From IMG/VR virus record IMGVR_UViG_3300010352_001127: a stretch of DNA of 64,000 nt. One strand, given 5' to 3'. Below, piece after piece: positions 2,716 through 64,000 of the stretch. The translations under genes and the position numbers were made by a program. The number at the start of each line of letters is the position of its first letter. Positions within the stretch are counted from its first letter, which is position 1. Source of the DNA: a virus. Taxonomy: Duplodnaviria; Heunggongvirae; Uroviricota; Caudoviricetes. The notes beneath the pieces are model-generated. The model did no database searches. It was not told where the DNA came from and worked only from the letters and a program-made list of their open reading frames with translations.

Positions 2716-3900
2716 TTATGGAAAACATACAGCAACCGGTGTGCTTTTATTTGTAACTGAATTTATTCCTAATTCTCCAAAAGTATTTTCCCCCCAAGAC
2801 CAAGCTTTATTATTTTTATCTAAAGCCAAAGTATTATAACCACCGCTTATGAAATTGAAAGTATGATTTCCACAGACAGCGACCGGAGTTGATACACTTC
2901 CAGACGACGTGTTCGCGCCTAACTGTCCGTCGTTATTCCATCCCCAACACCACGCTTTTCCGTGATTATCTATCGCCATAGAATGATAATTACCAGCTTC
3001 TATATCGCAAAATGTATGACCTCCACAAACAGCCACCGGCGTACTTCTATTAGTTGATGTATTATCTCCCAAAGTACCAACATTGAAATTTGACCCCCAT
3101 GCCCAAGCTTTTCCATGATTGTCTATCGCTAATACGTGATGTTGTCCACAAGATATTTGACAAAATGTATGCGCTCCGCAAACAGCCACTGGTGTACTTC
3201 TATCTGTGGAAATATTATTACCTAAACATCCATACCCATTGTATCCCCATCCCCAAGCTTTGCCATGATTGTCTACGGATGACGAATGACGTTGTCCGCA
3301 ATCTATTAGACAGAATGTATGAGTCCCGTAGACTGCAATTGGTGTGCTTTTACATACCACAGTGTTATCTCCCAATTGTCCATAATTATTATCCCCCCAT
3401 GACCACAATTTACCATTATATCCTAATCCTAAAGTGTTATGACCTTCACTAGTATATCTTCCTCCTACTTTTATATAACAAAAAGTATGATCCCCGCAAA
3501 CAGCCACTGGTATAGATTTTCCATTGGTAGTATTATCTCCCAATTGTCCATAACTATTATTCCCCCAAGTCCAAGCTTTCCCGTCGGTATCTATGGCTGC
3601 GCTGTGTATCCCAGTGTCTATGGCAATAAAATTGCGATTACCAAAAACGGCTCGTGGAATACATTTATCACCGTGTTCATTAATGCCTAATTGTCCATAA
3701 CTATTATCTCCCCAAGTCCAAGCTTTGTTATAAACATCTAAAGCTATGCTATTAAAAGTTCTACCAACAATACTTACAAAATAATCAGTTGATCCAGAAT
3801 CTGTTAAATAAATTAAACAAGGAGACGATATTTCATACGCTATTTTACTATTTCGTAAAACTATTCTATAAATGGCCATAAAAAACAGATTTTTTATCAT
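2716..3900 (-). CDS. RCC1-repeat (beta-propeller) protein, probable fibre / receptor-binding component
   Basis: About 7 repeats of the W(T/A/S)WG.N.YGQLG.N pattern typical of RCC1 / alpha-tubulin-suppressor blades. Start ATG sits in the loop of an inverted repeat. Confidence 0.6.
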   Translation of the reverse strand: MIKNLFFMAIYRIVLRNSKIAYEISSPCLIYLTDSGSTDYFVSIVGRTFNSIALDVYNKAWTWGDNSYGQLGINEHGDKCIPRAVFGNRNFIAIDTGIHSAAIDTDGKAWTWGNNSYGQLGDNTTNGKSIPVAVCGDHTFCYIKVGGRYTSEGHNTLGLGYNGKLWSWGDNNYGQLGDNTVVCKSTPIAVYGTHTFCLIDCGQRHSSSVDNHGKAWGWGYNGYGCLGNNISTDRSTPVAVCGAHTFCQISCGQHHVLAIDNHGKAWAWGSNFNVGTLGDNTSTNRSTPVAVCGGHTFCDIEAGNYHSMAIDNHGKAWCWGWNNDGQLGANTSSGSVSTPVAVCGNHTFNFISGGYNTLALDKNNKAWSWGENTFGELGINSVTNKSTPVAVCFP

Positions 3901-3926
3901 TTTTATATATAAAAAATCTGTTTTCT
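3880..3926 (-). promoter_or_regulatory. Inverted repeat (16-nt arms AAAAAACAGATTTTTT / AAAAAATCTGTTTT) whose loop carries a TATATATA promoter-like box and the ATG of the 2716..3900 gene
   Basis: Arms 3880-3895 and 3911-3924 are reverse complements (14/16). The loop is ATCATTTTTATATAT. The element is homologous to the one at 16077-16120. Confidence 0.5.
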
Positions 3927-3945
3927 TAAAAACGAAATAATAGGA

Positions 3946-4830
3946 TTATATTAGTTTTTTATAATATTCTGCTGTTTTTCGCAAACCTTCCTCCAAAATT
4001 GTTACGGGCGTCCAAGATAAAATGTCTGATGATTTTTTAAAATCAATATTAACAGATTCAAAATTTTTACCGTTTTCTTTGAATATTATTTTTGAATTTG
4101 TTTTTATAACTTTCAATGTGGTATTAGCTAATTCTTTTATTGATGTAAGTGTTTGATTTCCAATATTTAATACAGTTTCAGTAGTTTCTGTATTCATAAA
4201 TTTTATAAAAACATCCAAAAAGTCGTCTATGTAACAAAAAGAATCTATTTGATTACCATCTCCAAAAATTATTAAATCCTCATTTTTTAAAGATTTCATT
4301 ATAAATTGCGGTATAACTCGCGAATCTCCAACTGCCATATTCGGACCATATATACTTTTTAGTCTTGATATTTTTACTTTTGTTGAAAATTTCTTTCTAT
4401 ATTCACTACAAAGAGTTTCAGCTACTCTCTTTCCTTCTGTATAACAAGAATTTATGCCAGTGTGATCATATTCGAAAACTCTTACTGTTGAAGAATGCAT
4501 TATTGGAATATCCAATTTTGTAGCTAATTCTAACGCATTTCTTGTTCCATAAATATTGGTTTCTAATGTTTTTAGAGGATCTTTGCGATAATGATCTGGG
4601 GCGGCAGGGCTTGCCAAATTATATATTTGATTAATATCCGATATGTTTATTTCCTTACGTATATCATGATTTATTAAATGAAAATTTTCATTTTTTGTGA
4701 AATTGATGACATTATTTTTGGAACTGGTTGAAAAATCATCCAAGCAATAAACCGTGTTGCCTTGATATAACAAACTCTTACAAAGATTAGAACCTATAAA
4801 ACCGCTACCTCCTAAAACTAAAATTTTCAT
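3946..4830 (-). CDS. NAD(P)-dependent sugar epimerase/dehydratase (extended SDR family)
   Basis: N-terminal Rossmann motif MKILVLGGSGFIGSNL, 294 aa. Last gene of the 6442->3946 operon. Confidence 0.6.
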   Translation of the reverse strand: MKILVLGGSGFIGSNLCKSLLYQGNTVYCLDDFSTSSKNNVINFTKNENFHLINHDIRKEINISDINQIYNLASPAAPDHYRKDPLKTLETNIYGTRNALELATKLDIPIMHSSTVRVFEYDHTGINSCYTEGKRVAETLCSEYRKKFSTKVKISRLKSIYGPNMAVGDSRVIPQFIMKSLKNEDLIIFGDGNQIDSFCYIDDFLDVFIKFMNTETTETVLNIGNQTLTSIKELANTTLKVIKTNSKIIFKENGKNFESVNIDFKKSSDILSWTPVTILEEGLRKTAEYYKKLI

Positions 4831-4841
4831 AATTTAACAAC

Positions 4842-5759
4842 TCATATATTTTGACAATTTTTATCTTTGAATTTTCCATCCGGATCTTTATATAAATAAG
4901 GTGTCCAAAATCCAAATTCATTAACAATTAAAAACATACCATATCTTTTGGCTATATTATTTCTGTAACGAAAATCTTTATATGAAGCAAGACTTTCTGG
5001 ATTGCCCATATAAGGCTTTCCTTCATTTAAGACGTATCTATTCATCATTATTTTTCTAGATTTACCCTTCAATTTTTCTAAGTGATAAGAAGATATATCA
5101 TCTATTTTTTCTATGCTTAATCTGCGACGGAGCGGACAAGCCATTCCGCATTTTGGGCAGAATTGTTCCATCTGCTCACGATAATCTTTGCGTGTGCGTT
5201 TCCACCAACCATGTTCAACTTCCCAACCATCGGGTCCATCATACAACATAGCGAAAGCTGCGGCCATTTCGCAGAAATAAGCCCCCTTTGGATTAATAGA
5301 AGCACTCCAAGATTCCTGCGCCCAACAATGATCTATATAATACCACATATCATCTTTATCCTTAATCACTTCATCTATAGCCACAAGAGCTGGATGATGA
5401 TATATGTCATCGCGAGTGTGATCGTTTATAAAAATATGACCGAATGTTCTTACAATAACTTCACGATAATGTTCGTATCCTTTTGGAAGAGTTGTCCAAA
5501 GACCTAATTGTTCCTTTGGAAATTTTGATGCTGCATAATCACAAAATTTTTCAAACTCTGGATGAAGGATTGGTTCGCCTCCTTGAAAACCAACCATTTT
5601 TTTAAAACCTTCAAAAGAATCTATTGCTTCTTTGAATTTTTCAAATGAAAGATAGAAAACTTTTCCATGACCGACAAATCTCGTACAATTACTACATAAA
5701 TTACGACAACAATTTGTAATTTCGATTTGAATTGTATCTTGATCCCTCAAATTTATCAT
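4842..5759 (-). CDS. Radical SAM enzyme with a C-terminal Cys cluster (SPASM/twitch-like); start revised to ATG 5759 (ATGA overlap with upstream stop)
   Basis: CxxxCxxC motif in ITNCCRNLCSNCTRF. A second Cys cluster CPKCGMACP lies near the C-terminus. The ORF-track start at 5768 is TTG. Confidence 0.55.
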   Translation of the reverse strand: MINLRDQDTIQIEITNCCRNLCSNCTRFVGHGKVFYLSFEKFKEAIDSFEGFKKMVGFQGGEPILHPEFEKFCDYAASKFPKEQLGLWTTLPKGYEHYREVIVRTFGHIFINDHTRDDIYHHPALVAIDEVIKDKDDMWYYIDHCWAQESWSASINPKGAYFCEMAAAFAMLYDGPDGWEVEHGWWKRTRKDYREQMEQFCPKCGMACPLRRRLSIEKIDDISSYHLEKLKGKSRKIMMNRYVLNEGKPYMGNPESLASYKDFRYRNNIAKRYGMFLIVNEFGFWTPYLYKDPDGKFKDKNCQNI

Positions 5760-7328: not shown

Positions 7329-10300
7329 TTATATTTCAGTGTTGTTAGCAGAAACATAGGAGTATTCAATGACATCAACAGTATATTTCAATTGAAGTTT
7401 ATAACTTGGCGATGGATCCCATCCAGTAGCACTCCTTAAATTATTTTTTAATAATAGATACGGTTTACTGCTATATATTAGAGCTTCCGCATCTATATCA
7501 TTAGGACCTATTTGTCCTTGTGTATCTATCGATGCGTGACGACCCGGAGATGGTGTTTCTGAATTATACTTAACCCAATACCCAGAATGTTGAACTGTTT
7601 TAGTATCTGTTACATAATTAGTATAGCTACCAGTTTGATCTACAAAGACGTTGAAACGATATTCTCTCATCGCTGCCAATGAATAATCGATTGCTGTCAT
7701 TTGTGAAGTAGTGCCAGTATCCATTAAGTGATCCATATAGTAGTAACAATTAACCTTAACAGAGAATCCACTAGTTCCATTTCCACCTGTAACTCCGTGT
7801 GTTGTGGATAAGTCTATTTTACTTTGTGAAGCCCAAGCTGTGGCCCAACTAAACGGAGGTATATCATTTACATAATAATACGTTACTCCAATTCCAGAGG
7901 TTCCACTACTGCCTGTTATTCCTGATGTTCCACTAGTTCCTGAAGTGCCACTAACGCCACTAGTTCCACTGGTGCCATCATTTCCAGATGTTCCGCTTGT
8001 TCCTCTAGCTCCAGATGTTCCGCTAGTTCCACTACTGCCTTGTTTTCCAGATGTTCCACTAGTTCCACTAGTGCCACCTGTTCCACTGGTTCCTGATGTA
8101 CCTCCAGTTCCACTAGTTCCACTACTACCTGTTATTCCAGCGGTTCCGCTAGTTCCTGATGTACCGCCAGTGCCGCTAGTTCCACTACTGCCTTGTTTTC
8201 CAGATGTTCCACTAGTTCCACTTGTACCGCCTGTGCCTGAAGTACCACCAGTGCCATCATGTCCAGATGTTCCGCTTGTTCCACTACTACCATCATTTCC
8301 AGATGTTCCACTTGTACCGCCAGTACCATTTGTTCCTGATGTACCTCCAGTTCCACTAGTTCCACTACTACCTTGTCTTCCAGAAGTACCACTGGTTCCA
8401 CTTGTACCGCCTGTACCATTTGTTCCTGATGTACCTCCAGTTCCACTGGTTCCGCTACTACCATCATTTCCAGATGTGCCTGAAGTACCACCTGTTCCGC
8501 TAGTTCCAGAAGTACCACTACTACCATCATTACCAGATGTTCCACTGGTTCCGCTACTACCATCATTTCCAGATGTTCCGCTAGTTCCACTACTACCATC
8601 ATGTCCGGATGTTCCACTAGTTCCACTAGTTCCACCTGTGCCATTTGTTCCTGATGTACCACCAGTTCCACTAGTTCCACTACTGCCTTGTTTTCCAGAA
8701 GTACCACTTGTGCCACTAGTTCCACCCGTACCATTTGTTCCTGATGTACCACCAGTTCCACTGGTTCCACTACTTCCATCATGTCCTGATGTGCCTGAAG
8801 TTCCTCCAGTACCACTAGTTCCACTACTGCCATCATGTCCAGATGTTCCTGAAGTTCCACCCGTGCCTGAAGTACCGCTTGTACCACCAGTGCCATCATG
8901 TCCAGAAGTACCACTAGTTCCACTACTGCCATCGTGACCAGACGTACCTGAAGTACCACTTGTTCCACTAGTTCCTGATGTACCACTTGTTCCTGATGTA
9001 CCACTACTGCCATCGTGACCAGACGTACCTGAAGTACCACTTGTTCCGCTTGTACCACTACTTCCATCATGTCCTGATGTACCTGAAGTTCCTCCAGTAC
9101 CTGAAGTTCCACTACTTCCATCATGACCAGATGTGCCTGCTGTTCCTGAAGTACCACCAGTACCATTGGTTCCTGAAGTTCCGCCCGTTCCTGATGTACC
9201 ACTACTACCATCATTTCCAGATGTTCCACTAGTTCCACCAGTTCCGTTTGTTCCTGAAGTTCCACCAGTTCCACTAGTTCCACTACTCCCTGAAGTACCG
9301 TTTGTTCCAGAAGTGCCTGAAGTGCCTCCAGTTCCACTTGTACCACTACTACCTTGTTTTCCAGAAGTACCACTTGTACCACTACTACCAGAAGCACCTG
9401 AAGTGCCTGAAGTTCCTCCAGTTCCACTAGTTCCACCTGTTCCATTTGTTCCTGATGTCCCACCAGTTCCACTAGTCCCACTACTTCCTGTTAAACCTGA
9501 AGTTCCGCCAGTTCCTGAAGTTCCTCCTGTTCCCGAGGTACCACTACTACCTTGTTTTCCAGAAGTTCCGCTAGTTCCTGAAGTTCCTCCTGTTCCGCTG
9601 GTACCTGAAGTTCCACCAGTGCCACTAGTTCCACTACTACCATCGTGTCCAGATGTTCCACTTGTTCCACTAGTTCCACTACTTCCTGAAGTTCCTCCAG
9701 TTCCACTAGTTCCACTGCTTCCAGAAGTTCCACTAGTCCCAGAAGTACCACTAGTACCTCCAGTACCACTAGTTCCACTACTACCTTGTTTTCCAGAAGT
9801 TCCGCTGGTTCCTGAAGTACCGCTTGTGCCGCCTGTTCCGCTAGTACCTGAAGTACCACCTGTACCACTAGTTCCACTACTGCCATCGTGTCCCGAAGTA
9901 CCACTAGTACCTCCAGTTCCGCTAGTTCCACTACTACCATCATGTCCAGATGTTCCACTAGTTCCACTGCTACCTGAAGTTCCTGAAGTACCATTTGTTC
10001 CACTTGTACCTGAAGTTCCACTTGTACCACTACTACCTTGTTTTCCAGAAGTACCATTTGTACCACTTGTACCACTACTACCTGAAGTTCCACCAGTTCC
10101 AGAAGTACCGCCAGTTCCATTTGTTCCTGAAGTGCCTCCAGTTCCGCTAGTTCCACTAGTTCCACTAGTTCCATCATGACCCGATGTTCCCGAAGTTCCA
10201 CCTGTACCAGATGTTCCTGATGTCCCGCCTGTTCCGCTTGTTCCACTACTTCCATCATGACCCGATGTTCCTGAAGTGCCACCCGTGCCTGAAGTACCAC

Positions 10301-13300
10301 CTGTACCAGATGTTCCTGATGTCCCGCCTGTTCCGCTTGTTCCACTACTTCCATCATGACCCGATGTTCCTGAAGTGCCACCCGTGCCTGAAGTACCACC
10401 TGTGCCACCAGTTCCACTAGTTCCACTACTTCCAGAAGTTCCACTAGTTCCACTACTTCCAGAAGTTCCGCTTGTTCCACTACTACCATCGTGGCCAGAA
10501 GTTCCACTAGTTCCGCTTGTTCCACTACTACCATCGTGGCCAGAAGTTCCACTAGTTCCAGCAGTTCCACTTGTGCCAGAAGTGCCACCTGTTCCGCTTG
10601 TACCACTACTTCCATCATGTCCAGATGTACCTGATGTTCCACTTGTTCCGGAAGTACCACCTGTTCCACTTGTACCACTACTTCCATCATGTCCAGATGT
10701 ACCTGATGTTCCACTTGTTCCTGCTGTACCTGATGTTCCACTTGTACCGCCTGTACCTGAAGTTCCACTACTACCTGATGTTCCACTCGTGCCACTAGTT
10801 CCCGAAGTACCACTACTACCTTGTTTTCCAGAAGTACCACTTGTACCACTAGTTCCACTACTTCCTGAAGTTCCACCAGTTCCAGAAGTACCACCTGTTC
10901 CATTTGTACCTGATGTACCACTTGTCCCGCTAGTTCCGCTAGTCCCACTACTACCATCATGTCCAGATGTTCCAGAAGTTCCAGAAGTACCACCTGTTCC
11001 GTTAGTTCCTGAAGTACCACCTGCTCCACTAGTTCCACTACTTCCATCATGACCTGAAGTTCCAGAAGTACCACTTGTCCCGCTAGTTCCGCTAGTCCCA
11101 CTACTACCATCATGTCCAGATGTTCCTGAAGTTCCAGAAGTACCACCTGTTCCACTAGTTCCACTACTTCCATCACGACCTGAAGTTCCTGAAGTGCCGC
11201 CTGTTCCGTTAGTTCCTGAAGTACCACCTGTTCCACTAGTTCCACTAGTTCCGCTTGTTCCACTACTACCACTAGTACCGCCAGTTCCGCCTGTACCAGA
11301 AGTACCACTTGTTCCCGATGTGCCACTGCTACCATCATGACCGGAAGTTCCACTAGTTCCACTTGTTCCACTAGTTCCACTACTACCATCATGTCCAGAA
11401 GTACCACTAGTTCCTGAAGTACCACCTGTTCCACTAGTTCCTGAAGTGCCGCCTGTTCCACTTGTACCACTGCTACCATCAACGCCCGAAGTTCCAGAAG
11501 TTCCTCCTGTACCTGATGTTCCATTTGTCCCACTTGTGCCTCCAGTGCCTGAAGTACCACTACTACCAGATGTGCCTGAAGTTCCTCCAGTACCACTAGT
11601 TCCACTACTACCTTGTTTTCCAGAAGTACCACTAGTTCCACTACTTCCAGAAGTTCCTGAAGTGCCAGAAGTTCCCCCAGTGCCACTTGTTCCTCCAATA
11701 CCACTAGTTCCACTACTTCCAGAAGTTCCTGAAGTGCCAGAAGTTCCCCCAGTGCCACTTGTTCCTCCAATACCACTAGTTCCACTACTTCCATCATAAC
11801 CACTTGTTCCCGAAGTTCCTCCCGTACCTGATGTTCCTGAAGTACCACCTGTACCACTAGTTCCACTACTTCCATCATGACCACTTGTTCCAGAAGTGCC
11901 ACTGCTACCACTTGTACCGCTTGTTCCGCCAGTACCAGAAGTGCCACCTGTTCCACTAGTTCCACTAGTACCGCTACTACCATCGTGTCCTGATGTACCA
12001 CTTGTTCCTGAAGTTCCTCCAGTACCACTAGTTCCGCTAGTTCCTGAAGTTCCACTACTTCCATCGTGACCAGAAGTACCACTAGTTCCACTAGTTCCGT
12101 TTGTTCCTGAAGTTCCACCAGTTCCACTACTTCCTGTCGCACCTGATGTTCCAGAGGTTCCGCCGGCACCGCTAGTTCCTGATGTACCGCCAGTTCCACT
12201 AGTTCCACTACTTCCTCCTGTACCTGATGTGCCACTAGTTCCAGAAGTTCCACTCGTACCACCAGTTCCACTAGTTCCACTACTACCTTGTTTACCGGAA
12301 GTACCACTTGTACCACTACTTCCAGAAGTTCCCGAAGTGCCTGAAGTTCCTCCAGTACCACTTGTTCCTCCAGTACCACTAGTTCCACTACTTCCTGTTG
12401 CGCCAGAAGTTCCAGATGTTCCGCCTGTTCCAGATGTACCACTAGTTCCACCTGTTCCAGATGTACCGCTACTCCCATCGTGACCTGAAGTACCTGATGT
12501 ACCTGAAGTACCACTTGTTCCTCCTGTTCCTGAAGTTCCTCCAGTTCCGCTAGTCCCACTACTTCCTGAAGTTCCGCTAGTCCCACTTGTTCCTGAAGTT
12601 CCACCTGTGCCATTTGTTCCACTAGTACCACTTGATCCTGATACTCCACTTGTTCCACTAGTTCCTCCAGTTCCACTAGTTCCACCTGTTCCACTAGTTC
12701 CAGAAGAACCAGACGTACCACTTGTTCCGCTAGTTCCCGAAGTACCACTACTACCTTTTGCGCCCGAAGTTCCACTAGTTCCAGATATACCACTAGTTCC
12801 ACCTGTACCTGATGTACCGCTCGTGCCGCCAGTTCCGCTAGTCCCGCTACTTCCACTTGTACCACTACTACCAGATGTTCCATTAGTTCCTGAAGTACCA
12901 CCAGTGCCATTCGTGCCACTCGTACCTCCAGTTCCTGAAGTACCACTACTACCTGATGTTCCACTAGTTCCACTACTTCCAGAAGTTCCACTAGTTCCAC
13001 TAGTTCCAGAAGTGCCACTGCTACCTGATGTACCGCTAGATCCAGAAGTACCACTAGTTCCTGATGTACCTGAAGTTCCACTTGTTCCTGAAGTACCGCC
13101 TGTTCCACTAGTACCGCTACTTCCTTGGGCTCCACTAGTTCCACTGGTTCCACTTGTACCCCCAGTACCGCTTGTTCCTGATGTCCCGCCTGTTCCACTA
13201 GTTCCACTACTACCTTGAGCCCCACTAGTTCCTGAAGTACCACTGCTACCTTGTGCTCCGCTGGTTCCACTTGTACCACCAGTTCCGCTAGTTCCACTAC

Positions 13301-16070
13301 TACCTTGAGCCCCGCTTGTTCCTGAAGTACCACCAGTACCACTCGTACCACTTGTACCACTTGTTCCCCCAGTACCACTAGTTCCACTACTACCTGATGT
13401 TCCACTAGTTCCACTACTTCCAGAAGTGCCTGAAGTTCCACCAGTTCCGCTTGTTCCAGATGAACCAGAAGTACCACTACTGCCCTGAGCTCCTGAAGTT
13501 CCAGATGTACCACCAGTCCCAGATGTTCCACTAGTTCCGCCAGTTCCGCTAGTTCCACTACTTCCTGAAGTACCTGATGTTCCACTACTACCAGATGTTC
13601 CCCCCGTACCTGAAGTTCCGCTAGATCCAGATGTTCCTCCTGACCCGCTTGTACCAGATGTTCCACTTGTACCGCCAGTTCCGCTAGTTCCACTACTACC
13701 TTGAGCTCCACTAGTTCCACTCGTGCCACTAGTTCCTGAAGTTCCACTACTACCTTGAGCTCCACTAGTTCCACTTGTTCCGCTAGATCCGCTAGTTCCA
13801 CTAGTACCGCTTGTGCCCGATGTACCTGAAGTTCCACTAGAACCACTTGTACCGCTGGTTCCACTGATACCAGTCAATCCACTAGTTCCACTTGTTCCTG
13901 AGGTGCCCCCAGTTCCGCTCGTACCGCTAGATCCAGAAGTACCACTACTACCAGAAGTACCTGAAGAACCTGATGTTCCGCTAGTTCCACTACTACCTGA
14001 TGTTCCACTTGTTCCAGACGTACCACTAGTCCCGCTAGTACCTGAAGTTCCACTAGTTCCACTGGATCCTGAAGTTCCCCCAGTGCCACTAGTTCCACTA
14101 CTACCTTGAGCTCCACTAGTTCCAGAAGTCCCACTACTACCTGATGTTCCACTTGTTCCAGAAGTACCACTACTACCCGATGTTCCAGATGTACCACCAG
14201 TCCCAGATGTTCCACTACTTCCACTAGTCCCTGAAGTTCCTGATGTTCCAGACGAACCACTCGTTCCTGATGTTCCTCCTGTACCTGATGTTCCTCCGGT
14301 TCCACTACTTCCTTGTGCTCCACTAGTTCCACTGGTTCCTGAAGTTCCGCTACTACCTGTTAAACCACTGGTTCCACTAGAACCACTAGTACCACTACTA
14401 CCACTAGTTCCTGATGTTCCGCTTGTACCACTGCTGCCAGATGTTCCACTAGTACCACTACTTCCTGAAGTTCCACTAGTACCACTAGTTCCTGATGTTC
14501 CGCTTGTACCACTGCTGCCAGATGTTCCACTAGTACCACTACTTCCTGAAGTTCCACTAGTTCCGCTACTACCACTAGTTCCAGATGTACCACTACTACC
14601 TTGTGCTCCACTAGTTCCACTACTACCAGTTTCTCCTGATGTTCCGCTGGTTCCGCTTGTACCTGAAGTTCCACTGGAACCAAAACCACTAGTACCAGAT
14701 GTTCCTAAACCAGCATCAGTATAAGTAAAAACAATAGGTTCGTCTAATATAAAATTGTTATTTGAATCTATCGGTGTAACATCTAATGTCCACCAAGATC
14801 CATTATCTGTTTTAGCATCTAAATAAAAAGTTGCAAATTTAGTAGAATCGTATTCATCGAATATTCTGATTCTAGACATTCCATTGGCATTAAGACTACT
14901 TAACCAAGAACTTATATCAACACCATCTTTACTTGTCTGACTTATGTATATTTGAGTTACTGAACCGTATACAGTATTATCAAATTTTAAATATCCAGAT
15001 AGAGGATTTGATGCTGTTGTTCCTGTTAAGAAATAATATGGTTGGCTATCACCTCCAAATATTCCAGATAAACCAGAAGATCCAGGAGAACCCATACCTG
15101 ATGTTCCACTAGTTCCACTTACACCACTACTTCCATAAAACCATCCATCAACACCAGATGATCCTGAAGTCCCACTACTTCCAGTTCCACCTTGAATATA
15201 AGATATTAAATACGATTTCCCGTTTGTAGCTGAACCTCCTCCTGATGCGTAAACTGAAAATCCAGTTATTTCATAAAAATTGCCACCTAATCCAAGATTA
15301 ACACTATTAATGGGAACATTATATATGCCTACAACTGAAAGATTTTCTCTCTCTTCTATTTTTAATACGCCTTGAATATTCCACGAACTTAACCAATTAT
15401 TTACAAGATCTCCATTCGCGTCCCATTTATTTATTCTTATATTTGTTACAGCCCCTAAATTTGAATTATTTATGTAGAATTTTCCATTCCCAGGAGTTGA
15501 TGTACTATTATCATAAACCCATTTACGCGTAGCTCCACCATAACCACCATCTATACCGCTACTTCCACTAGTTCCACTACTACCTCCGAGTCCTGATGTA
15601 CCACTTGATCCACTAGAGCCTGATGTACCTGAAGATCCTGCTTCGCCGCTACTTCCACTTGTTCCGGATGTACCACTTGTGCCACTTGTTCCTCTACCGC
15701 TTGTTCCGCTTGTGCCACCTGTTCCACTCGTACCTCCAGTTCCACTGGTTCCGCCAGTTCCGTCTCTGCCGCTGCTACCACTTGATCCATCTCTACCACT
15801 ACTACCACTTGTTCCATCAGCTCCGCTTGATCCAAAGAAAACACCATCAACACCCGATGTACCGTCTTTTCCAGATGTGCCACTAGTTCCACCTCCACCA
15901 CTTCCTGAAGATGTCGCACCAGTACATGGCAAATAATAAATATTTCCCCACTCGTCCTTTTGCCAAAGGCCGCAAAAACCATCTATAAAATCTTGACCTA
16001 AGTATATATGCCCCGGATCTGGATTACCAATTAGTTTCGGGTCTACTCTTTGGATTTTTTTGAAACTCAT
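7329..16070 (-). CDS. Giant collagen-like fibre protein (2913 aa): N-terminal ~470-aa duplicated beta-rich domain, ~2250 aa of (G-T/S-S/G)n collagen triplets, C-terminal ~190-aa globular domain
   Basis: Uninterrupted G-X-Y periodicity over about 6.7 kb with no Pro and with periodic charged triplets (GHD, GKQ, GND, GAQ, GRD). The conserved N-terminus is shared with the paralog at 1..1028. Codons GGN-ACT-AGT dominate. Confidence 0.8.
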   Translation of the reverse strand: MSFKKIQRVDPKLIGNPDPGHIYLGQDFIDGFCGLWQKDEWGNIYYLPCTGATSSGSGGGGTSGTSGKDGTSGVDGVFFGSSGADGTSGSSGRDGSSGSSGRDGTGGTSGTGGTSGTGGTSGTSGRGTSGTSGTSGTSGSSGEAGSSGTSGSSGSSGTSGLGGSSGTSGSSGIDGGYGGATRKWVYDNSTSTPGNGKFYINNSNLGAVTNIRINKWDANGDLVNNWLSSWNIQGVLKIEERENLSVVGIYNVPINSVNLGLGGNFYEITGFSVYASGGGSATNGKSYLISYIQGGTGSSGTSGSSGVDGWFYGSSGVSGTSGTSGMGSPGSSGLSGIFGGDSQPYYFLTGTTASNPLSGYLKFDNTVYGSVTQIYISQTSKDGVDISSWLSSLNANGMSRIRIFDEYDSTKFATFYLDAKTDNGSWWTLDVTPIDSNNNFILDEPIVFTYTDAGLGTSGTSGFGSSGTSGTSGTSGTSGETGSSGTSGAQGSSGTSGTSGSSGTSGTSGSSGTSGTSGSSGTSGTSGTSGTSGTSGSSGTSGTSGSSGTSGTSGTSGSSGTSGSSGTSGLTGSSGTSGTSGTSGAQGSSGTGGTSGTGGTSGTSGSSGTSGTSGTSGSSGTSGTGGTSGTSGSSGTSGTSGTSGSSGTSGTSGAQGSSGTSGTGGTSGSSGTSGTSGTSGTSGTSGTSGTSGSSGTSGTSGSSGTSGSSGTSGSSGTSGTGGTSGTSGTSGLTGISGTSGTSGSSGTSGTSGTSGTSGTSGSSGTSGTSGAQGSSGTSGTSGTSGTSGAQGSSGTSGTGGTSGTSGTSGSGGTSGSSGTSGTGGTSGSSGTSGTSGSSGTSGTGGTSGTSGTGGTSGTSGAQGSSGTSGSSGTSGTGGTSGTSGSSGTSGTSGSSGTSGTGGTSGTSGTSGTGGTSGTSGAQGSSGTSGTGGTSGTSGAQGSSGTSGTSGAQGSSGTSGTGGTSGTSGTGGTSGTSGTSGAQGSSGTSGTGGTSGTSGTSGTSGTSGTSGSSGTSGSSGTSGTSGTSGTSGSSGTSGTSGSSGTSGTGGTSGTNGTGGTSGTNGTSGSSGTSGSSGTSGTGGTSGTSGTGGTSGISGTSGTSGAKGSSGTSGTSGTSGTSGSSGTSGTGGTSGTGGTSGTSGVSGSSGTSGTNGTGGTSGTSGTSGTSGSSGTSGTGGTSGTGGTSGTSGTSGTSGHDGSSGTSGTGGTSGTSGTGGTSGTSGATGSSGTSGTGGTSGTGGTSGTSGTSGSSGTSGTSGKQGSSGTSGTGGTSGTSGTSGTSGTGGSSGTSGTGGTSGTSGAGGTSGTSGATGSSGTGGTSGTNGTSGTSGTSGHDGSSGTSGTSGTSGTGGTSGTSGTSGHDGSSGTSGTSGTGGTSGTGGTSGTSGSSGTSGTSGHDGSSGTSGTGGTSGTSGTGGTSGTSGYDGSSGTSGIGGTSGTGGTSGTSGTSGSSGTSGIGGTSGTGGTSGTSGTSGSSGTSGTSGKQGSSGTSGTGGTSGTSGSSGTSGTGGTSGTNGTSGTGGTSGTSGVDGSSGTSGTGGTSGTSGTGGTSGTSGTSGHDGSSGTSGTSGTSGTSGHDGSSGTSGTSGTSGTGGTGGTSGSSGTSGTSGTSGTGGTSGTNGTGGTSGTSGRDGSSGTSGTGGTSGTSGTSGHDGSSGTSGTSGTSGTSGTSGHDGSSGTSGAGGTSGTNGTGGTSGTSGTSGHDGSSGTSGTSGTSGTSGTNGTGGTSGTGGTSGSSGTSGTSGTSGKQGSSGTSGTSGTSGTSGSSGTSGTGGTSGTSGTAGTSGTSGTSGHDGSSGTSGTGGTSGTSGTSGTSGHDGSSGTSGTGGTSGTSGTAGTSGTSGHDGSSGTSGTSGTSGHDGSSGTSGTSGSSGTSGTSGSSGTSGTGGTGGTSGTGGTSGTSGHDGSSGTSGTGGTSGTSGTGGTSGTGGTSGTSGHDGSSGTSGTGGTSGTSGTGGTSGTSGHDGTSGTSGTSGTGGTSGTNGTGGTSGTGGTSGSSGTSGTNGTSGKQGSSGTSGTSGTSGTNGTSGTSGSSGTSGTSGHDGSSGTSGTGGTSGTSGHDGSSGTSGTGGTSGTSGTGGTSGTSGTSGTSGKQGSSGTSGTGGTSGTSGTSGTSGSSGTSGTGGTSGSSGTSGTSGTSGHDGSSGTSGTGGTSGTSGTGGTSGTSGTSGKQGSSGTSGTGGTSGTGGTSGLTGSSGTSGTGGTSGTNGTGGTSGTGGTSGTSGASGSSGTSGTSGKQGSSGTSGTGGTSGTSGTNGTSGSSGTSGTGGTSGTNGTGGTSGTSGNDGSSGTSGTGGTSGTNGTGGTSGTAGTSGHDGSSGTSGTGGTSGTSGHDGSSGTSGTSGTSGTSGHDGSSGTSGTSGTSGTSGTSGTSGTSGHDGSSGTSGTSGHDGTGGTSGTSGTGGTSGTSGHDGSSGTSGTGGTSGTSGHDGSSGTSGTGGTSGTNGTGGTSGTSGTSGKQGSSGTSGTGGTSGTNGTGGTSGTSGTSGHDGSSGTSGTSGNDGSSGTSGTSGNDGSSGTSGTSGTGGTSGTSGNDGSSGTSGTGGTSGTNGTGGTSGTSGTSGRQGSSGTSGTGGTSGTNGTGGTSGTSGNDGSSGTSGTSGHDGTGGTSGTGGTSGTSGTSGKQGSSGTSGTGGTSGTSGTAGITGSSGTSGTGGTSGTSGTGGTSGTSGTSGKQGSSGTSGTSGARGTSGTSGNDGTSGTSGVSGTSGTSGTSGITGSSGTSGIGVTYYYVNDIPPFSWATAWASQSKIDLSTTHGVTGGNGTSGFSVKVNCYYYMDHLMDTGTTSQMTAIDYSLAAMREYRFNVFVDQTGSYTNYVTDTKTVQHSGYWVKYNSETPSPGRHASIDTQGQIGPNDIDAEALIYSSKPYLLLKNNLRSATGWDPSPSYKLQLKYTVDVIEYSYVSANNTEI
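7900..14700. repeat. Collagen-triplet nonamer-based repeat region containing perfect in-frame tandem duplications (99 bp at 10171-10403, 72 bp at 11627-11793, 81 bp at 14401-14562)
   Basis: Direct comparison of the sequence lines shows exact 99-, 72- and 81-nt units repeated 2-2.3 times. All are multiples of 9 nt, so Gly phase is preserved. Confidence 0.7.
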
Positions 16071-60162: not shown

Positions 60163-60615
60163 TCACTCGAGATCGGTTAACTGATATAGAGTTATTTTAT
60201 TTTTAACCGCAAAATTCAAATTATCTATATTTTTGAGAGTTTCTCTCAAGAACTCTATATGATTATCTAATATGTCCTTTTTATGATCATGAGACGCTAA
60301 TTCCCACTCAATCAATTTCATTCTTTCGGAAGCGTTTGTGATATATGGAGCTTGATTTCCAATATAATATTCAAATCTTTGCTTTCTAAAAGATTTGATT
60401 TTCGGCATCATTTTATATATCTGATAAGACATATTTTTTATTTGCTCTGATACTTGTTGGCGAAGACTTATAATCTCAGCCTGAAGTGGAACAACTTCTT
60501 TTGCACTACAAACCATTTTCTTTGTCAGAGATTCAACTGTAGCATTCCAATAATTTTCAGATTCTTCTAATTTTGATATTAATTTATCGACACCTTCTTC
60601 TTCGAGTTCGGCCAT
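60163..60615 (-). CDS. Hypothetical coiled-coil protein
   Basis: Heptad-rich sequence; convergent with the structural genes. Confidence 0.4.
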   Translation of the reverse strand: MAELEEEGVDKLISKLEESENYWNATVESLTKKMVCSAKEVVPLQAEIISLRQQVSEQIKNMSYQIYKMMPKIKSFRKQRFEYYIGNQAPYITNASERMKLIEWELASHDHKKDILDNHIEFLRETLKNIDNLNFAVKNKITLYQLTDLE

Positions 60616-60657: not shown

Positions 60658-61401
60658 TTATATTTTCTTATAAGAAATTGTAAAATAGTAATCAAACTTA
60701 AATTGACTAACATCTTTTGTTTGATTATAAATTATTTTAACTGTGTCCAAATTGCTTAGATAATCTGGAGTTATTATGTTAACGTTCGGAATTCTATATT
60801 TAACACTAAAAACAGATTTATTAAAATTTGGGCGCTTTAAAGCTTGATTCTTATCGAAAATAGTAGCACTATTAACAACATCGAAATAATTCGCATAGAA
60901 TACTAATTCTGATATATTATATCTGTTTAGCATATTAACATCAATATAATTATTGATATAGGTGTCTATATTTCTTTCCACCAAATCTTCACTTCTAACA
61001 GTCTTAAACACTCTGTTTTCTTTTAATCTTAAAAATAAATATTCTCTTAATATATTTTTAGCGTTAATGATTATTATCCATTCAAAATTTAGATTCTTAT
61101 CTGAAGTAGTTTCGTTTTGACTATAAATATCAATTGAATGATTTTCATATTTAATATCATCCAACCCTCTTGTTATATTAATTTCTGGATGTAAAATATT
61201 GGTATCATAATATTGATAATGATCGTTTTGAATATTTACTTTATCAACTATTTCTGAATATTGTATAGACATATCATTAATATAAATTTGATCTTCGATA
61301 TCAATAAGTTTACTTCCAAAGAAACTTTTTATTTCTGTAGCTGAGCGAGTGCCGTTTGTTGGAACGGTTTCATATTTTCTTATTATTAAATTACTTTTCA
61401 T
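60658..61401 (-). CDS. Hypothetical protein; start revised to ATG 61401 (ATGA overlap with upstream stop; ORF-track start is TTG)
   Basis: MKSNLIIRKYETV… after the revision. Confidence 0.4.
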   Translation of the reverse strand: MKSNLIIRKYETVPTNGTRSATEIKSFFGSKLIDIEDQIYINDMSIQYSEIVDKVNIQNDHYQYYDTNILHPEINITRGLDDIKYENHSIDIYSQNETTSDKNLNFEWIIIINAKNILREYLFLRLKENRVFKTVRSEDLVERNIDTYINNYIDVNMLNRYNISELVFYANYFDVVNSATIFDKNQALKRPNFNKSVFSVKYRIPNVNIITPDYLSNLDTVKIIYNQTKDVSQFKFDYYFTISYKKI

Positions 61402-61733
61402 CTCCAAATTTCCTCTCCATAAGGATCTATATTATATTGTTCGTAATTTTTTACTAAATTCACTTTTTCGTTTGTTAATTCTACATCACCGTTATCATAA
61501 AGTGTAAATACTCCATATTGATAACTCATCCAGTCATAATTAAAAGCCATATCCTTTATCGCGTTTACATCTTTATCATGAATCTTGGGATTATTTTTTT
61601 CTAAATAATCTTTCGGATCTTTTTTTTTAGCTACAAAATATCCAACGATTTTTCTATTCGGATCTTCCCATTTCTCTTCGCTGTAAGGATCTAATTCATT
61701 AGTTTCGTTTAAAAATCTCTTCACGTGTTTCAT
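61398..61733 (-). CDS. Hypothetical protein carrying the DPY(G/S)EE.W motif at both termini
   Basis: N-terminal …NELDPYSEEKWEDP (61668-61691) and C-terminal …NIDPYGEEIWR* (61404-61427). Confidence 0.45.
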   Translation of the reverse strand: MKHVKRFLNETNELDPYSEEKWEDPNRKIVGYFVAKKKDPKDYLEKNNPKIHDKDVNAIKDMAFNYDWMSYQYGVFTLYDNGDVELTNEKVNLVKNYEQYNIDPYGEEIWR

Positions 61734-61757
61734 TTCTTCTATCGATATCTTTTCTTC

Positions 61758-61771
61758 TATATATTAAAATG
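61758..61771 (-). promoter_or_regulatory. Promoter-like box TTCTATATATTAAAATG upstream of 61398..61733; partner box TTAATATATATATTTT at 61808-61823 lies directly upstream of uvsW
   Basis: Motif family members. Confidence 0.45.
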
Positions 61772-61827
61772 TCAAAAGCTAATTTCAAAAAATAAACATT
61801 TGGCTCATAATTTAATATATATATTTT

Positions 61828-62865
61828 ATGAAATTTAAACTCAACGAAAATAATACCAAACTTCAATTAATAGAAGCGAATAGAGACGAGTATGCTCAAC
61901 TCAAATTAAGCCTGAGCAAGTACGTGAAAAATTATTTCTTTCAGGCTAAATACAAAATGACCAAGTGGGACGGGAAAATAGAATTCATGAAAATGGATAA
62001 GATTAACTTTGGTCTTTGGTATGAAGTTTATAAGGTTTGTAAAGAATATGGTTATCCATTTCAAATAGTTAATAAAGAGCAATTTCCGATAGATAAGAAT
62101 ATTAAAAGAGAAGAAGTTGAAAAATTTTGTTTAGAATTCTTTAAAGATCATAAGTCTAAAGAAGATATTAACAAATCATTCAATCTTTATGAACATCAAA
62201 TTGAAGCGATATATAAAATTCTAAAACATAAATATGGTTTAGTTGAAGTGGCGACAGCTGGCGGAAAGTCCCTCGTTTTCGGGACTTTAATTTTTTATTA
62301 TCTTAATAATATTAATCCAGACGCTAAATTTTTACTTATTGTCCCGAGCATTGGTCTGGTTACTCAATTTTATAATGATTTAATGGACTACAATCTTGGA
62401 TTTCATATGGAAAATAAAACCCCGTCTAATATAAAAATAGATGAGATTATGAGTGAAAGACCAAGAAAACATTTCGACGGAGAACCAAATATATATATTG
62501 GTACATATCAGAGTTTGGAGAAATGGCCAGATGAATTTTTCAAACAATTTGACGTCGTTGCAGTAGACGAATGCCTTCACCCAGACACTTTAATAGAAAC
62601 AACATCAGGAAAAAAGAAAATATGCGATATTAAAAAAGGAGAATCGGTATTTACTTTAAATGAAAAAACAGGCAATAAAGAAATAAAAGAAGTGGATTTT
62701 ATATATAGAAATATAAGTAAAAATGAGCAGATGTTTGAGTTGGAATTTGAGAATGACAATAAAATAAAAATCACTGGGAATCATCAAGTTATTTTAAAAA
62801 ATAAAAAAAGAAAAAGAGTTGATCAGTTAACGGAAGAAGATGAAATTTTTGACATCAATATATGA
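61828..62865 (+). CDS. uvsW: UvsW-type SF2 DNA helicase N-extein (to …VVAVDE, 61828-62571) fused to an N-terminal split-intein half (CLHPDTLIETTSG…ITGNHQVIL…, 62572-62865)
   Basis: WDGKIEF, GLWYEVYKVCKEYGYPF, Walker A VATAGGKSLVFG and LLIVPSIGLVTQF blocks co-linear with T4 UvsW. Intein block A (C-L-x-x-D-T-x-I) begins right after DE of motif II. Block B is TGNHQV. A stop follows 98 intein residues. Confidence 0.65.
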   Translation: MKFKLNENNTKLQLIEANRDEYAQLKLSLSKYVKNYFFQAKYKMTKWDGKIEFMKMDKINFGLWYEVYKVCKEYGYPFQIVNKEQFPIDKNIKREEVEKFCLEFFKDHKSKEDINKSFNLYEHQIEAIYKILKHKYGLVEVATAGGKSLVFGTLIFYYLNNINPDAKFLLIVPSIGLVTQFYNDLMDYNLGFHMENKTPSNIKIDEIMSERPRKHFDGEPNIYIGTYQSLEKWPDEFFKQFDVVAVDECLHPDTLIETTSGKKKICDIKKGESVFTLNEKTGNKEIKEVDFIYRNISKNEQMFELEFENDNKIKITGNHQVILKNKKRKRVDQLTEEDEIFDINI

Positions 62866-63310
62866 ATTTAATAATCAGAATGTAATCGTTCTTGATGATA
62901 ATTCCGATAAAAATGATAAGGAAGAGGTATTTAATTTTTTAAAGAAGAATGTTTTTAGATTTATGAATAGGAAAAACACTGATGAATCTATAAATAGATT
63001 TTTGAAAAAAAATAATATAGTTATAGATATAAATAGGAACTTAACATACAAAAATATATTCGATTTTCTCAATAATACTACTTACGATAATTGTCATTGT
63101 GACAATATAAATTGTGATAATGAAACTAAATTCACTGGATTTTATTCACTTAAATATTTTCCTAGTGGATATCATAAATTTTGTTCTAAAAAATGTATGA
63201 ATGAATGGTTTAGTGATAAACAAAAAGGAGAGAACAATACTTTTCATAGAATGAACAAAGACAGAATTATGAAAAATTTAAAACGTTATGAAAATAAAAA
63301 AAATATCTAA
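62840..63310 (+). CDS. Freestanding ORF between the split-intein halves (frame 2); Cys/His-rich (DNCHCDNINCDNE…GYHKFCSKKCMNEW). Possible small endonuclease/Zn-binding protein or a degenerated HEN domain
   Basis: ATG with the GGAAGAAG SD-like sequence; overlaps both flanking ORFs by ~25 nt; no clear GIY-YIG/HNH/EDxHD signature. Confidence 0.3.
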   Translation: MKFLTSIYEFNNQNVIVLDDNSDKNDKEEVFNFLKKNVFRFMNRKNTDESINRFLKKNNIVIDINRNLTYKNIFDFLNNTTYDNCHCDNINCDNETKFTGFYSLKYFPSGYHKFCSKKCMNEWFSDKQKGENNTFHRMNKDRIMKNLKRYENKKNI

Positions 63311-64000
63311 AATTGATTATGACGGTGACGTATATAATCTTAGAATAAAAGACGACGACGGGTATAACCATAATTATTTTGCTAATGATTTGTGTGTGTC
63401 TAATTGTCATATAGCAAAGGCTAAAACCGTAATATCTATTATGGATAGAACATTTGAATCATCTAAAATTCGTTTTGGTATGAGTGGTAGTTATCCGTCG
63501 GAAGGGAGCGCTGAGCTTTTCACAATAGAATCTTTAACTGGTCCAAAACTCATAAACATTAAGGCTAAAGATTTAATGGAAAAAGGTATCATATCAAAAG
63601 TAAAAATAAAAGGATTGATATTAAATCATAATGAAAAAAGTTTTGCCGAGAACGTTTATGCTATAAAAAGATCTGGTAATGGTAAAAAGGCGTGGGAGTT
63701 GGAGCGCAATTTTGCTCAAGCATCACTTCCTAGAAAAATCTTTTTAGCCAAACTAGTGTCCAAATTTAAGCAAAATTCCATAGTTTTGTTTCAGAATATA
63801 AATTATGGAACAGAGTTATATAATTATTTTAGAGATAATATACCAGGAAAAGATTTCTTCTATATTGATGGAAGCACTTCAAAAGATAAACGTGAGGCTA
63901 TTCGCAAAGAACTAGAGAAGACTGATGGAAATGTAAAGATATTGGTTGGTTCGTTTGGAACAATGAGCACAGGCATAAACATTAAAGCTATTGTAAATCT
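63288..64000 (+). CDS. uvsW: C-terminal split-intein half (63288-63404: MKIKKISKIDYDGDVYNLRIKDDDGYNHNYFANDLCVSN) fused to the UvsW C-extein (from CHIAKAKT…, 63405 onward; runs off the window end)
   Basis: Intein blocks F/G (VYNL…DGYNHNYFANDL…SN|C). The extein restores motif II DE|CH and continues co-linear with T4 UvsW (CHIAKAKTVISIM…FGMSGS…). Confidence 0.65.
   Translation, partial: MKIKKISKIDYDGDVYNLRIKDDDGYNHNYFANDLCVSNCHIAKAKTVISIMDRTFESSKIRFGMSGSYPSEGSAELFTIESLTGPKLINIKAKDLMEKGIISKVKIKGLILNHNEKSFAENVYAIKRSGNGKKAWELERNFAQASLPRKIFLAKLVSKFKQNSIVLFQNINYGTELYNYFRDNIPGKDFFYIDGSTSKDKREAIRKELEKTDGNVKILVGSFGTMSTGINIKAIVN

Follow-up and report, generated by a model that had tools for sequence, protein, structure and literature searches.

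Can a phage helicase whose gene is broken inside motif II still be made as one functional protein? The question is raised by a 64,000-nucleotide (nt) stretch of the IMG/VR viral record IMGVR_UViG_3300010352_001127 (Caudoviricetes), hereafter the window. At its end (positions 61,828 to 64,000), a first reading of the letters alone (the original prediction) had proposed a UvsW helicase gene divided by a split intein, with a free-standing endonuclease gene between the halves. Our analysis makes it highly probable, on sequence grounds, that this is a fractured gene: the UvsW helicase of a low-GC huge phage would be encoded as two polypeptides, predicted to be joined by protein trans-splicing, with the remnant of an endonuclease gene lying between them. 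The fractured-gene layout itself is known; what is new here is the host gene, UvsW, together with a different family of endonuclease and unusual intein residues.

Organization of the locus

Three open reading frames (ORFs) occupy the locus, all on the plus strand and each in a different frame, with each intein half fused to its own part of the helicase. The N-half ORF (61828-62865, frame 1, 345 aa) opens with an N-extein (61828..62571, aa 1-248) that comprises the N-terminal domain and RecA-like domain 1 of a UvsW-type superfamily 2 (SF2) helicase as far as the DE of motif II, ending ...FDVVAVDE at aa 248. It continues directly into the intein N-fragment (IntN; 62572..62865, C249-I345), which begins with CLHPDTLIETTSG, carries block A as CLHPDTL and block B as TGNH within ITGNHQVIL, and runs to ...DINI before a TGA stop at 62863-62865. 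The helicase read up to VVAVDE, the intein fragment behind it and the stop at 62865 had all been anticipated; only the estimate of about 98 intein residues needs adjusting, to 97. The middle ORF (62840-63310, frame 2, 156 aa) overlaps the coding sequence of IntN by 26 nt and that of the intein C-fragment by 23 nt.

The C-half lies in frame 3, where the last upstream stop is at 63279 and an ATG at 63288, 422 nt past the N-half stop, is the sole start codon thereafter. From this ATG the ORF reads MKIKKISKIDYDGDVYNLRIKDDDGYNHNYFANDLCVSN, the 39-aa intein C-fragment (IntC; 63288..63404) with blocks F and G and a terminal Asn, and then CHIAKAKT, the start of the C-extein (63405..64000). The C-extein begins with Cys+1-His, which completes the DECH box, and proceeds into helicase domain 2; it is partial because the ORF leaves the window at its end. 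The complete C-half is represented by metagenome protein P0131 (310 aa), which is 100% identical across the window part. Frame 1 contains 36 stop codons after 62863, leaving no read-through path. A split intein placed exactly between the DE and CH of motif II, with ORFs in three frames, was therefore seen at essentially the coordinates first proposed, as was a C-half starting some 420 nt downstream in frame 3 and passing from an intein end into CHIAKAKT.

The layout can also be read at the RNA level, with the intervening 422 nt as a self-splicing, ORF-bearing intron whose removal would restore a contiguous mini-intein. Endonuclease ORFs are common in phage introns, and the coincidence of an intein with an intron has been reported for the terminase of Campylobacter phage IBB_35 (PMC3322345). 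At the present locus, however, a scan of 61700-64000 with Rfam returned zero families at E values up to 1, the predicted RNA fold of the region was not more stable than that of shuffled sequences (z -1.23), the ORFs overlap, and IntC begins at a conserved start codon of its own. We assign the intron a negligible probability.

The joined exteins align end to end with UvsW helicases

The N-extein scores 33.4 bits against Pfam UvsW_N (cut-off 25.3) and also passes the thresholds of ResIII and DEAD, while the truncated C-half falls just short of the threshold of Helicase_C (23.2 vs 23.5). Joining the exteins in silico, from residue 248 of the N-half to Cys40 of the C-half, gives a protein of 519 aa. 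This join is 80% identical, end to end and without gaps, to the uninterrupted 520-aa helicase of LR756501, a 735-kb uncultured phage that is the closest public relative and shares the conserved genes upstream of the helicase. The helicase of LR756501 reads …DIISVDEGHYMKAKS… at the site, and the sequence of this type of intein-less allele is …GTAGACGAAGGTCAT…. Among PDB sequences the best match of the join is T4 UvsW (2oca; E 2.7e-47, residues 19-485), whose native motif II is DECH and to which the join aligns with no gap at the DE/CH junction (the slash marks the point of insertion). The alignment bears out the expectation that removal of the element would restore the DE-CH box in a protein co-linear with T4 UvsW.

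The inserted element matches inteins

Profile searches identified both fragments. IntN scores 31.5 bits against NCBIfam intein_Nterm (TIGR01445; cut-off 24.5, E 2.6e-7), and IntN and IntC cover complementary parts of the 155 positions of Pfam Intein_splicing (7-92 and 122-155, respectively). The joined fragments match the same family (PF14890) in two stretches with 41.8 bits (E 1.3e-10), above the threshold set by its gathering score, 35.8. IntC ends in ...NHNYFANDLCVSN before the Cys of the C-extein, and the region of blocks F and G is present. The assignment of the N-side segment to intein blocks A/B was upheld by NCBIfam and Pfam profiles, with the thresholds of intein_Nterm and of the joined Intein_splicing match both passed; for blocks F/G the Pfam match stands beside an NCBIfam C-terminal score below its cut-off (see below).

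Searches of PDB sequences with the intein fragments gave only inteins at E < 0.1 (NrdJ-1, Npu DnaB and PI-PkoII); weaker matches included the inteins of Pho RadA and Mja KlbA, with a few non-intein sequences at E > 0.2. The profile match of both fragments to inteins exceeds chance. The intein halves show no charge complementarity, IntN and IntC each carrying a net charge of -1. Weaker relatives of IntN (34-38% identity) are found in inteins that interrupt NrdA in Campylobacter phages (CPt10, CP20, IBB_35 and others); the annotation of CPt10 marks its intein-interrupted NrdA gene as 'disrupted'.

The split recurs across metagenomes and cultured phages

A megablast search of the region against phage records gave zero matches, and protein-level searches alone were informative. 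Identical copies of the N-half and middle proteins are encoded on 5-8 contigs of the JGI, ENA and Logan assemblies; one of these contigs (L009) matches the window exactly across 11,161 nt. The 120 best homologues of the N-half ORF divide into about 58 N-halves of 341-387 aa with Hint or Intein_splicing domains and about 60 helicases of about 519 aa; a contiguous intein-bearing allele was not seen among these 120, the longest being 526 aa. The 120 best homologues of the C-half are almost all separate proteins of about 260-340 aa beginning with MKIKK. Counted as protein clusters from independent assemblies, the split is found in about 58 for the N-half and about 115 for the C-half. Altogether, metagenomes contain more than 100 distinct homologous halves.

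The layout is present as well in finished genomes of cultured phages, namely Salmonella phages S16, STP4-a, SEA1 and CF-SP2 and Proteus phage PM2, and the Lak-B megaphages likewise have a fractured helicase. The relative frames of the three ORFs vary by lineage (contigs L010, L011, L012 and L013, and phage S16), even though IntC starts at its own conserved ATG, encoding MKIKK, just past a stop.

These observations bear on whether the split could be an artefact of sequencing or assembly, in which case two indels would hide an intein that is in fact contiguous and encloses a decayed endonuclease domain. In favour of such errors, the three ORFs are set apart by no more than two +1 frame changes, and homopolymer runs occur in this AT-rich region. 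Because the split recurs in independent assemblies, more than 100 diverged clusters and finished genomes, because the frames differ between lineages, and because the IntC start is conserved, indels are excluded as its source, which disposes of the possibility that the original prediction had named as its own refutation. We regard an artefact as scarcely credible.

The arrangement has been deposited without being recognized. PHROG 16259 (330 positions) spans the N-half ORF end to end, IntN included, and PHROG 9690 covers the C-half from residue 3, so that the arrangement is undescribed rather than unseen, lying unrecognized in deposited genomes and in these two families. Our literature search found no description of UvsW with a split intein, or of the S16 or Lak arrangement; most subscription journals fell outside its coverage, and 'undescribed' is accordingly provisional. 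On a rough neighbour-joining tree of 115 N-exteins, no fewer than 12 changes are needed to account for the presence of the intein; when the labels are shuffled, the mean is 38. This patchy distribution fits vertical descent combined with repeated gain or loss.

Conservation of the splicing residues

Across 54 N-halves, with identities down to 48%, Cys1, His3 and the Thr-Gly-Asn-His of block B are 100% conserved, and IntN is 95-101 aa long in all except one of 140 aa. The C-halves are similarly constrained, with Ser or Ala, then the terminal Asn, followed by Cys-His in 115 of 120. The divergence rate of IntN is close to that of the exteins; IntC is slower to change. Against L010, a contig whose N-half is 79% identical to that of the window, nonsynonymous divergence (dN) is 0.21 for IntN, 0.15 for IntC and 0.10 for the exteins, and the values for the intein are far from neutral.

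The low dN of the exteins, below that of the intein, is also a point to set against reading the helicase as a decaying pseudogene, broken by a mobile insertion and no longer giving rise to functional UvsW. The gene is indeed interrupted, and the inserted endonuclease is itself degenerate (see below). Both exteins are nevertheless intact, the helicase motifs are kept, and the split state persists in lineages only 48-50% identical, so that we judge decay of the helicase highly improbable.

The residue at the +1 position is more telling. In 62 uninterrupted homologues, DE is followed by Ala (40 cases), Gly (15), Ser (6) or, in a single protein (P0107), Cys, while Cys occupies this position in the intein-bearing alleles. 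A +1 nucleophile is required for splicing and not for association of the fragments alone. The tie between Cys+1 and presence of the intein speaks for genuine trans-splicing, although the proteins compared are phylogenetically related and this tempers the argument. The exception, P0107 (526 aa), is alone among the uninterrupted close homologues in reading DECH where the intein would insert. Next to that site its C-extein (CHTAKAKTVQSVL) is similar to that of intein-bearing alleles, which makes P0107 a candidate for precise intein loss.

The same residues decide how much weight to give to the only serious rival, namely that the intein halves serve solely as a non-covalent dimerization module in a two-chain helicase with a splicing-dead intein. 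Several observations weigh against the account of the locus given here, and the first of them favour such a rival. IntC scores 10.1 bits against NCBIfam intein_Cterm (TIGR01443), below the cut-off of 15.6, and it has Asn at position 4 of block F and Ser as the penultimate residue, both non-canonical. Inteins usually have Asp and His, respectively, at these positions. An AlphaFold2 single-sequence model of fused IntN and IntC was unusable, with a predicted local confidence (pLDDT) of 37. The middle ORF, furthermore, is still open, with a ratio of nonsynonymous to synonymous divergence (dN/dS) of about 0.2 against L010 at a dS near saturation, and it may keep a non-nuclease role; the ratio is uninformative on its present state, the comparison spanning a period when the gene was intact. 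Fragmented phage enzymes that assemble without splicing also have a reported precedent in the NrdA of phage Aeh1, which is split by mobE (PMC3045599).

Set against this, the block F Asn and the penultimate Ser are nearly invariant in the UvsW split-intein family, and are for this reason features of the family rather than signs of decay. Splicing is also known from inteins without the penultimate His. Moreover, across more than 100 diverged homologues Cys1 and the TxxH of block B do not vary, and the terminal Asn and Cys+1 hardly do, and dimerization alone would not select for a Cys+1 that is all but missing from uninterrupted alleles. We therefore consider non-covalent assembly unlikely, and trans-splicing of the two helicase halves the better account of the locus.

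The middle ORF and its decay in relatives

The middle ORF of the window yielded no meaningful match in Pfam, PHROGs or NCBIfam, and a search of 1.8 billion representative proteins brought up only 9 relatives. At the same place, L010 has an intact ORF of 307 aa that is 66% identical to it. Comparison of the two by blastn pairs window 61784-63267 with L010 3959-5437 and window 63257-64000 with L010 5874-6617, so that the window ORF lacks 447 nt (149 codons, in frame) relative to L010. The 11 nt at the junction, 63257..63267, align to both L010 sites, which have in common GATAAAGAAA, the core of a longer direct repeat; in L010 this short repeat flanks the stretch that corresponds to the deletion, with GATAAAGAAA in both copies.

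The deleted stretch, …RSSWEA…YE…IPY…H-YIVDF…LYEIKP…, holds the E…D…ExK core of a PD-(D/E)xK nuclease, and this catalytic core is absent from the window ORF. What the ORF retains are helices, a Cys cluster resembling a zinc finger and a NUMOD3-like GENN motif, presumed to be the DNA-binding part; it lacks the N-terminal zinc ribbon seen in the relatives P0002 and P0123. Over the remnant (62850-63300) GC content is 21-23%, compared with about 30% in the helicase exteins, which is consistent with foreign origin or relaxed constraint.

The nature of the intact enzyme emerges from these relatives. The region that holds the deleted stretch is homologous to gp114.1 of S16 by tblastn (E 2e-18); direct BLASTP of the window ORF against gp114.1 was not significant, the homology being clear only by way of L004 and L010. 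S16 gp114.1 has weak Pfam matches, below threshold, to TnsA-like_N and NUMOD3, and the family member P0123 passes the threshold of Tn7_TnsA-like_N (33 bits). A profile search of PDB sequences gave T7 endonuclease I as best match, weakly (E 0.11). By its homology, then, the middle ORF is the internally deleted remnant of a TnsA-like PD-(D/E)xK homing endonuclease.

The original prediction fared unevenly at this point. It had placed a Cys/His-rich ORF at 62840..63310 in a third reading frame; the ORF and its Cys cluster are there, lacking the nuclease domain removed by the deletion. It had taken this ORF for a free-standing homing-endonuclease gene, which holds for the position between the halves and for the intact homologues in L010, S16 and Lak-B2, whereas the window copy is a deleted remnant. 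The Shine-Dalgarno-like sequence claimed ahead of the ORF is simply GGAAGAAG within coding sequence and carries little weight. Membership of the Vsr-like/EDxHD (I-Bth0305I), HNH or GIY-YIG families, which had been put forward for the endonuclease, was rejected in favour of the TnsA-like PD-(D/E)xK family indicated by the profiles.

Relatives present this gene in very different states. It is intact in L010 and S16 (307 and 291 aa), and intact in the Lak-B2 megaphage (L014, MK250021) if TAG is a sense codon; in L011 it consists of a 329-aa and a 51-aa ORF; in three independent assemblies (L003, L004 and L007) it is frameshifted into three ORFs; the window copy is missing the nuclease domain; and L012 keeps a C-terminal stub of 77 aa. 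L013 (4001-6097 of a 421-kb contig, JGI 3300037067) has no separate middle ORF: a Cys-rich zinc-ribbon remnant alone is left, fused in frame to the end of IntN for a total of 140 aa, and one stop codon in the same frame directly precedes the ATG of IntC. A 616-aa ORF with repeated NUMOD-like motifs (DUF7487) lies downstream of the helicase in L013. In Lak-B2 (about 3792-5046) the endonuclease gene contains 8 in-frame TAG codons and ends in TAA, and IntC contains one in-frame TAG. Since the endonuclease is intact only with TAG read as sense, this mobile gene seems to have become adapted to recoding.

Proposed mechanism

These results suggest the following model. The three ORFs would probably be co-transcribed. 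No terminator-like site was found between them, the sole terminator-like hairpin lying inside the N-extein, and a promoter scan did not rise above shuffled background (15 promoter-like sites vs 18 expected). Two polypeptides, the N-extein with the 97-aa IntN and the 39-aa IntC with the C-extein, would be translated separately. IntN and IntC would then come together as a HINT fold that performs class-1 protein trans-splicing by means of Cys1, the Thr and His of block B, the terminal Asn and Cys+1. From this reaction one expects the 519-aa helicase with an intact DECH motif II. We infer trans-splicing here from the conservation of these residues and the profile matches of the fragments.

The ancestral endonuclease would have combined zinc-ribbon, zinc-finger and NUMOD3-like DNA-binding parts with a TnsA/endonuclease-I-like PD-(D/E)xK nuclease. 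In relatives that keep it, the enzyme presumably cuts intein-less helicase alleles at co-infection, and repair would then copy the whole element, the Cys+1 codon included, into the cut allele. In the window phage the nuclease domain has been lost through the 447-nt in-frame deletion between short direct repeats, and the element is probably immobile there. Both the activity of the endonuclease in relatives and this order of events are inferred from comparison of the loci. Selection would nonetheless keep the split intein, on which the helicase depends, and the intein would persist because only a precise deletion would restore the gene.

A broader proposal is that motif II of UvsW hosts a large, undescribed split-intein family, reaching from T4-like phages (S16, PM2) through Lak phages to the largest known phages, with its own undescribed TnsA-like free-standing endonucleases and with splicing that proceeds with a block F Asn and a penultimate Ser. 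We hold this proposal tentatively, as one that falls slightly short of an even chance. In a bolder variant, splicing would be conditional and would gate recombination-dependent replication, or the nuclease-less remnant would retain a DNA-binding role.

Comparison with known systems

Fractured genes were defined by Dassa et al. (2009, NAR; PMC2677866) from ocean metagenome fragments, with gp41, IMPDH, DnaE, NrdA, NrdJ, ligase and terminase as hosts and UvsW not among them; their endonucleases were GIY-YIG or Vsr-like, and one locus, gp41-7, was without an endonuclease. Like the loci gp41-1, NrdJ-1, IMPDH-1 and NrdA-2, the UvsW locus has N-extein and IntN, endonuclease gene, and IntC and C-extein in this order on one strand, in a phage enzyme of DNA metabolism and with fragments of similar size (97 and 39 aa). 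Locus L013, without a separate endonuclease ORF, parallels gp41-7. The UvsW locus differs in its host gene and in its TnsA/endonuclease-I-like PD-(D/E)xK endonuclease, internally deleted in the window, and its ORFs overlap, whereas those of the earlier loci are 27-51 nt apart. The intein also differs from the earlier ones in having Cys at +1, Asn at block F position 4 and a penultimate Ser. In gp41-1 and NrdJ-1 the +1 residue is Ser.

The closest cultured counterpart is Salmonella phage S16 (NC_020416), in which gp114, gp114.1 and gp115, like their equivalents in STP4-a, SEA1 and Proteus phage PM2, have the same insertion site (…MMNDE/C…AHN/CH…). The IntN of S16 is homologous to that of the window (42.6% identity), uvsY lies nearby, and the middle gene is homologous too, with a NUMOD3 motif and a TnsA-like nuclease; unlike in the window, that gene is intact and the intein has the canonical penultimate His. 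S16 is a cultured T4-like phage of 160 kb, whereas the window derives from a huge phage. Genomes of this type bear only the annotations 'DNA helicase', 'hypothetical protein' and 'DNA helicase' or uvsW_1. The same fracture is found in the Lak-B megaphages of Prevotella (MK250021 and others), with an IntN 51% identical and an IntC nearly identical to those of the window (…DVYNLRIKSENE-NHNYYANDLCISN, followed by CH); their endonuclease belongs to the same family as the window remnant and is open only with TAG as sense, and the Lak records are unannotated.

Pseudomonas jumbo phage MIJ3 likewise has a fractured gene in a three-ORF layout within a large cultured phage (PMC6892783). There the host is PolB, the endonuclease is of the HNH type, and the intein is unrelated, with Ser as first residue. 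The cyanobacterial DnaE intein (Ssp/Npu) is another naturally split class-1 intein with Cys1 and Cys+1, through which an essential DNA enzyme is produced by trans-splicing. Unlike the UvsW intein, it has its halves at distant loci with no intervening endonuclease gene, and it belongs to an unrelated sequence family.

The UvsW split-intein family thus has cultured phages of Salmonella and Proteus at one end of its range and megaphages of 550-735 kb at the other. Its members record every stage of endonuclease decay (intact, frameshifted, domain-deleted, reduced to a stub, absent), with the intein outliving its engine of mobility, and the near-exclusive link between Cys+1 and the intein provides in-silico evidence of selection on splicing chemistry. 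The locus offers a clean natural record of the homing cycle rather than a new principle. For annotation, the 'two helicases plus a hypothetical protein' of S16-like genomes are to be read as one gene. The naturally split inteins gp41-1 and NrdJ-1, which come from fractured loci, are now widely used tools for protein ligation, and the UvsW family, with more than 100 natural variants and unusual residues in blocks F and G, might furnish a new trans-splicing tool. If the broader family proposal is true, S16 would offer a genetically tractable system in which to study fractured genes and how they home, and the intein would add a new orthogonal Cys1/Cys+1 pair to the tools for trans-splicing.

Genomic surroundings

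On the minus strand 1.2 kb upstream of the helicase, a 150-aa ORF (60163-60615) has a weak match to UvsY (E 7.8e-4, below the gathering score); if this match is real, uvsY and uvsW are neighbours in the window, as in S16. In the S16 genome (L001) a gene for a GIY-YIG, SegE-like endonuclease (2321-2956) stands immediately upstream of the uvsW N-half; with gp114.1 inside, uvsW of S16 hence has one homing-endonuclease gene at its side and a different one within it. Downstream of the helicase, L010 and L011 have T5orf172/MUG113 ORFs.

Between the UvsY-like ORF and the helicase, the minus strand of the window encodes a 111-aa ORF (61398-61733) with the motif DPYSEEKWEDP. In LR756501 (L002, 5913-7920), five paralogues with a DPYGEE-W motif stand in tandem immediately downstream of the helicase, so that this is a multi-copy family of small proteins. 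Far from the helicase, a giant minus-strand ORF of 2913 aa (7329-16070) consists mostly of collagen triple-helix repeats (Pfam Collagen, E 8e-189) and is accompanied, in other frames and on the opposite strand, by several long overlapping ORFs, as is typical of repeat sequence.

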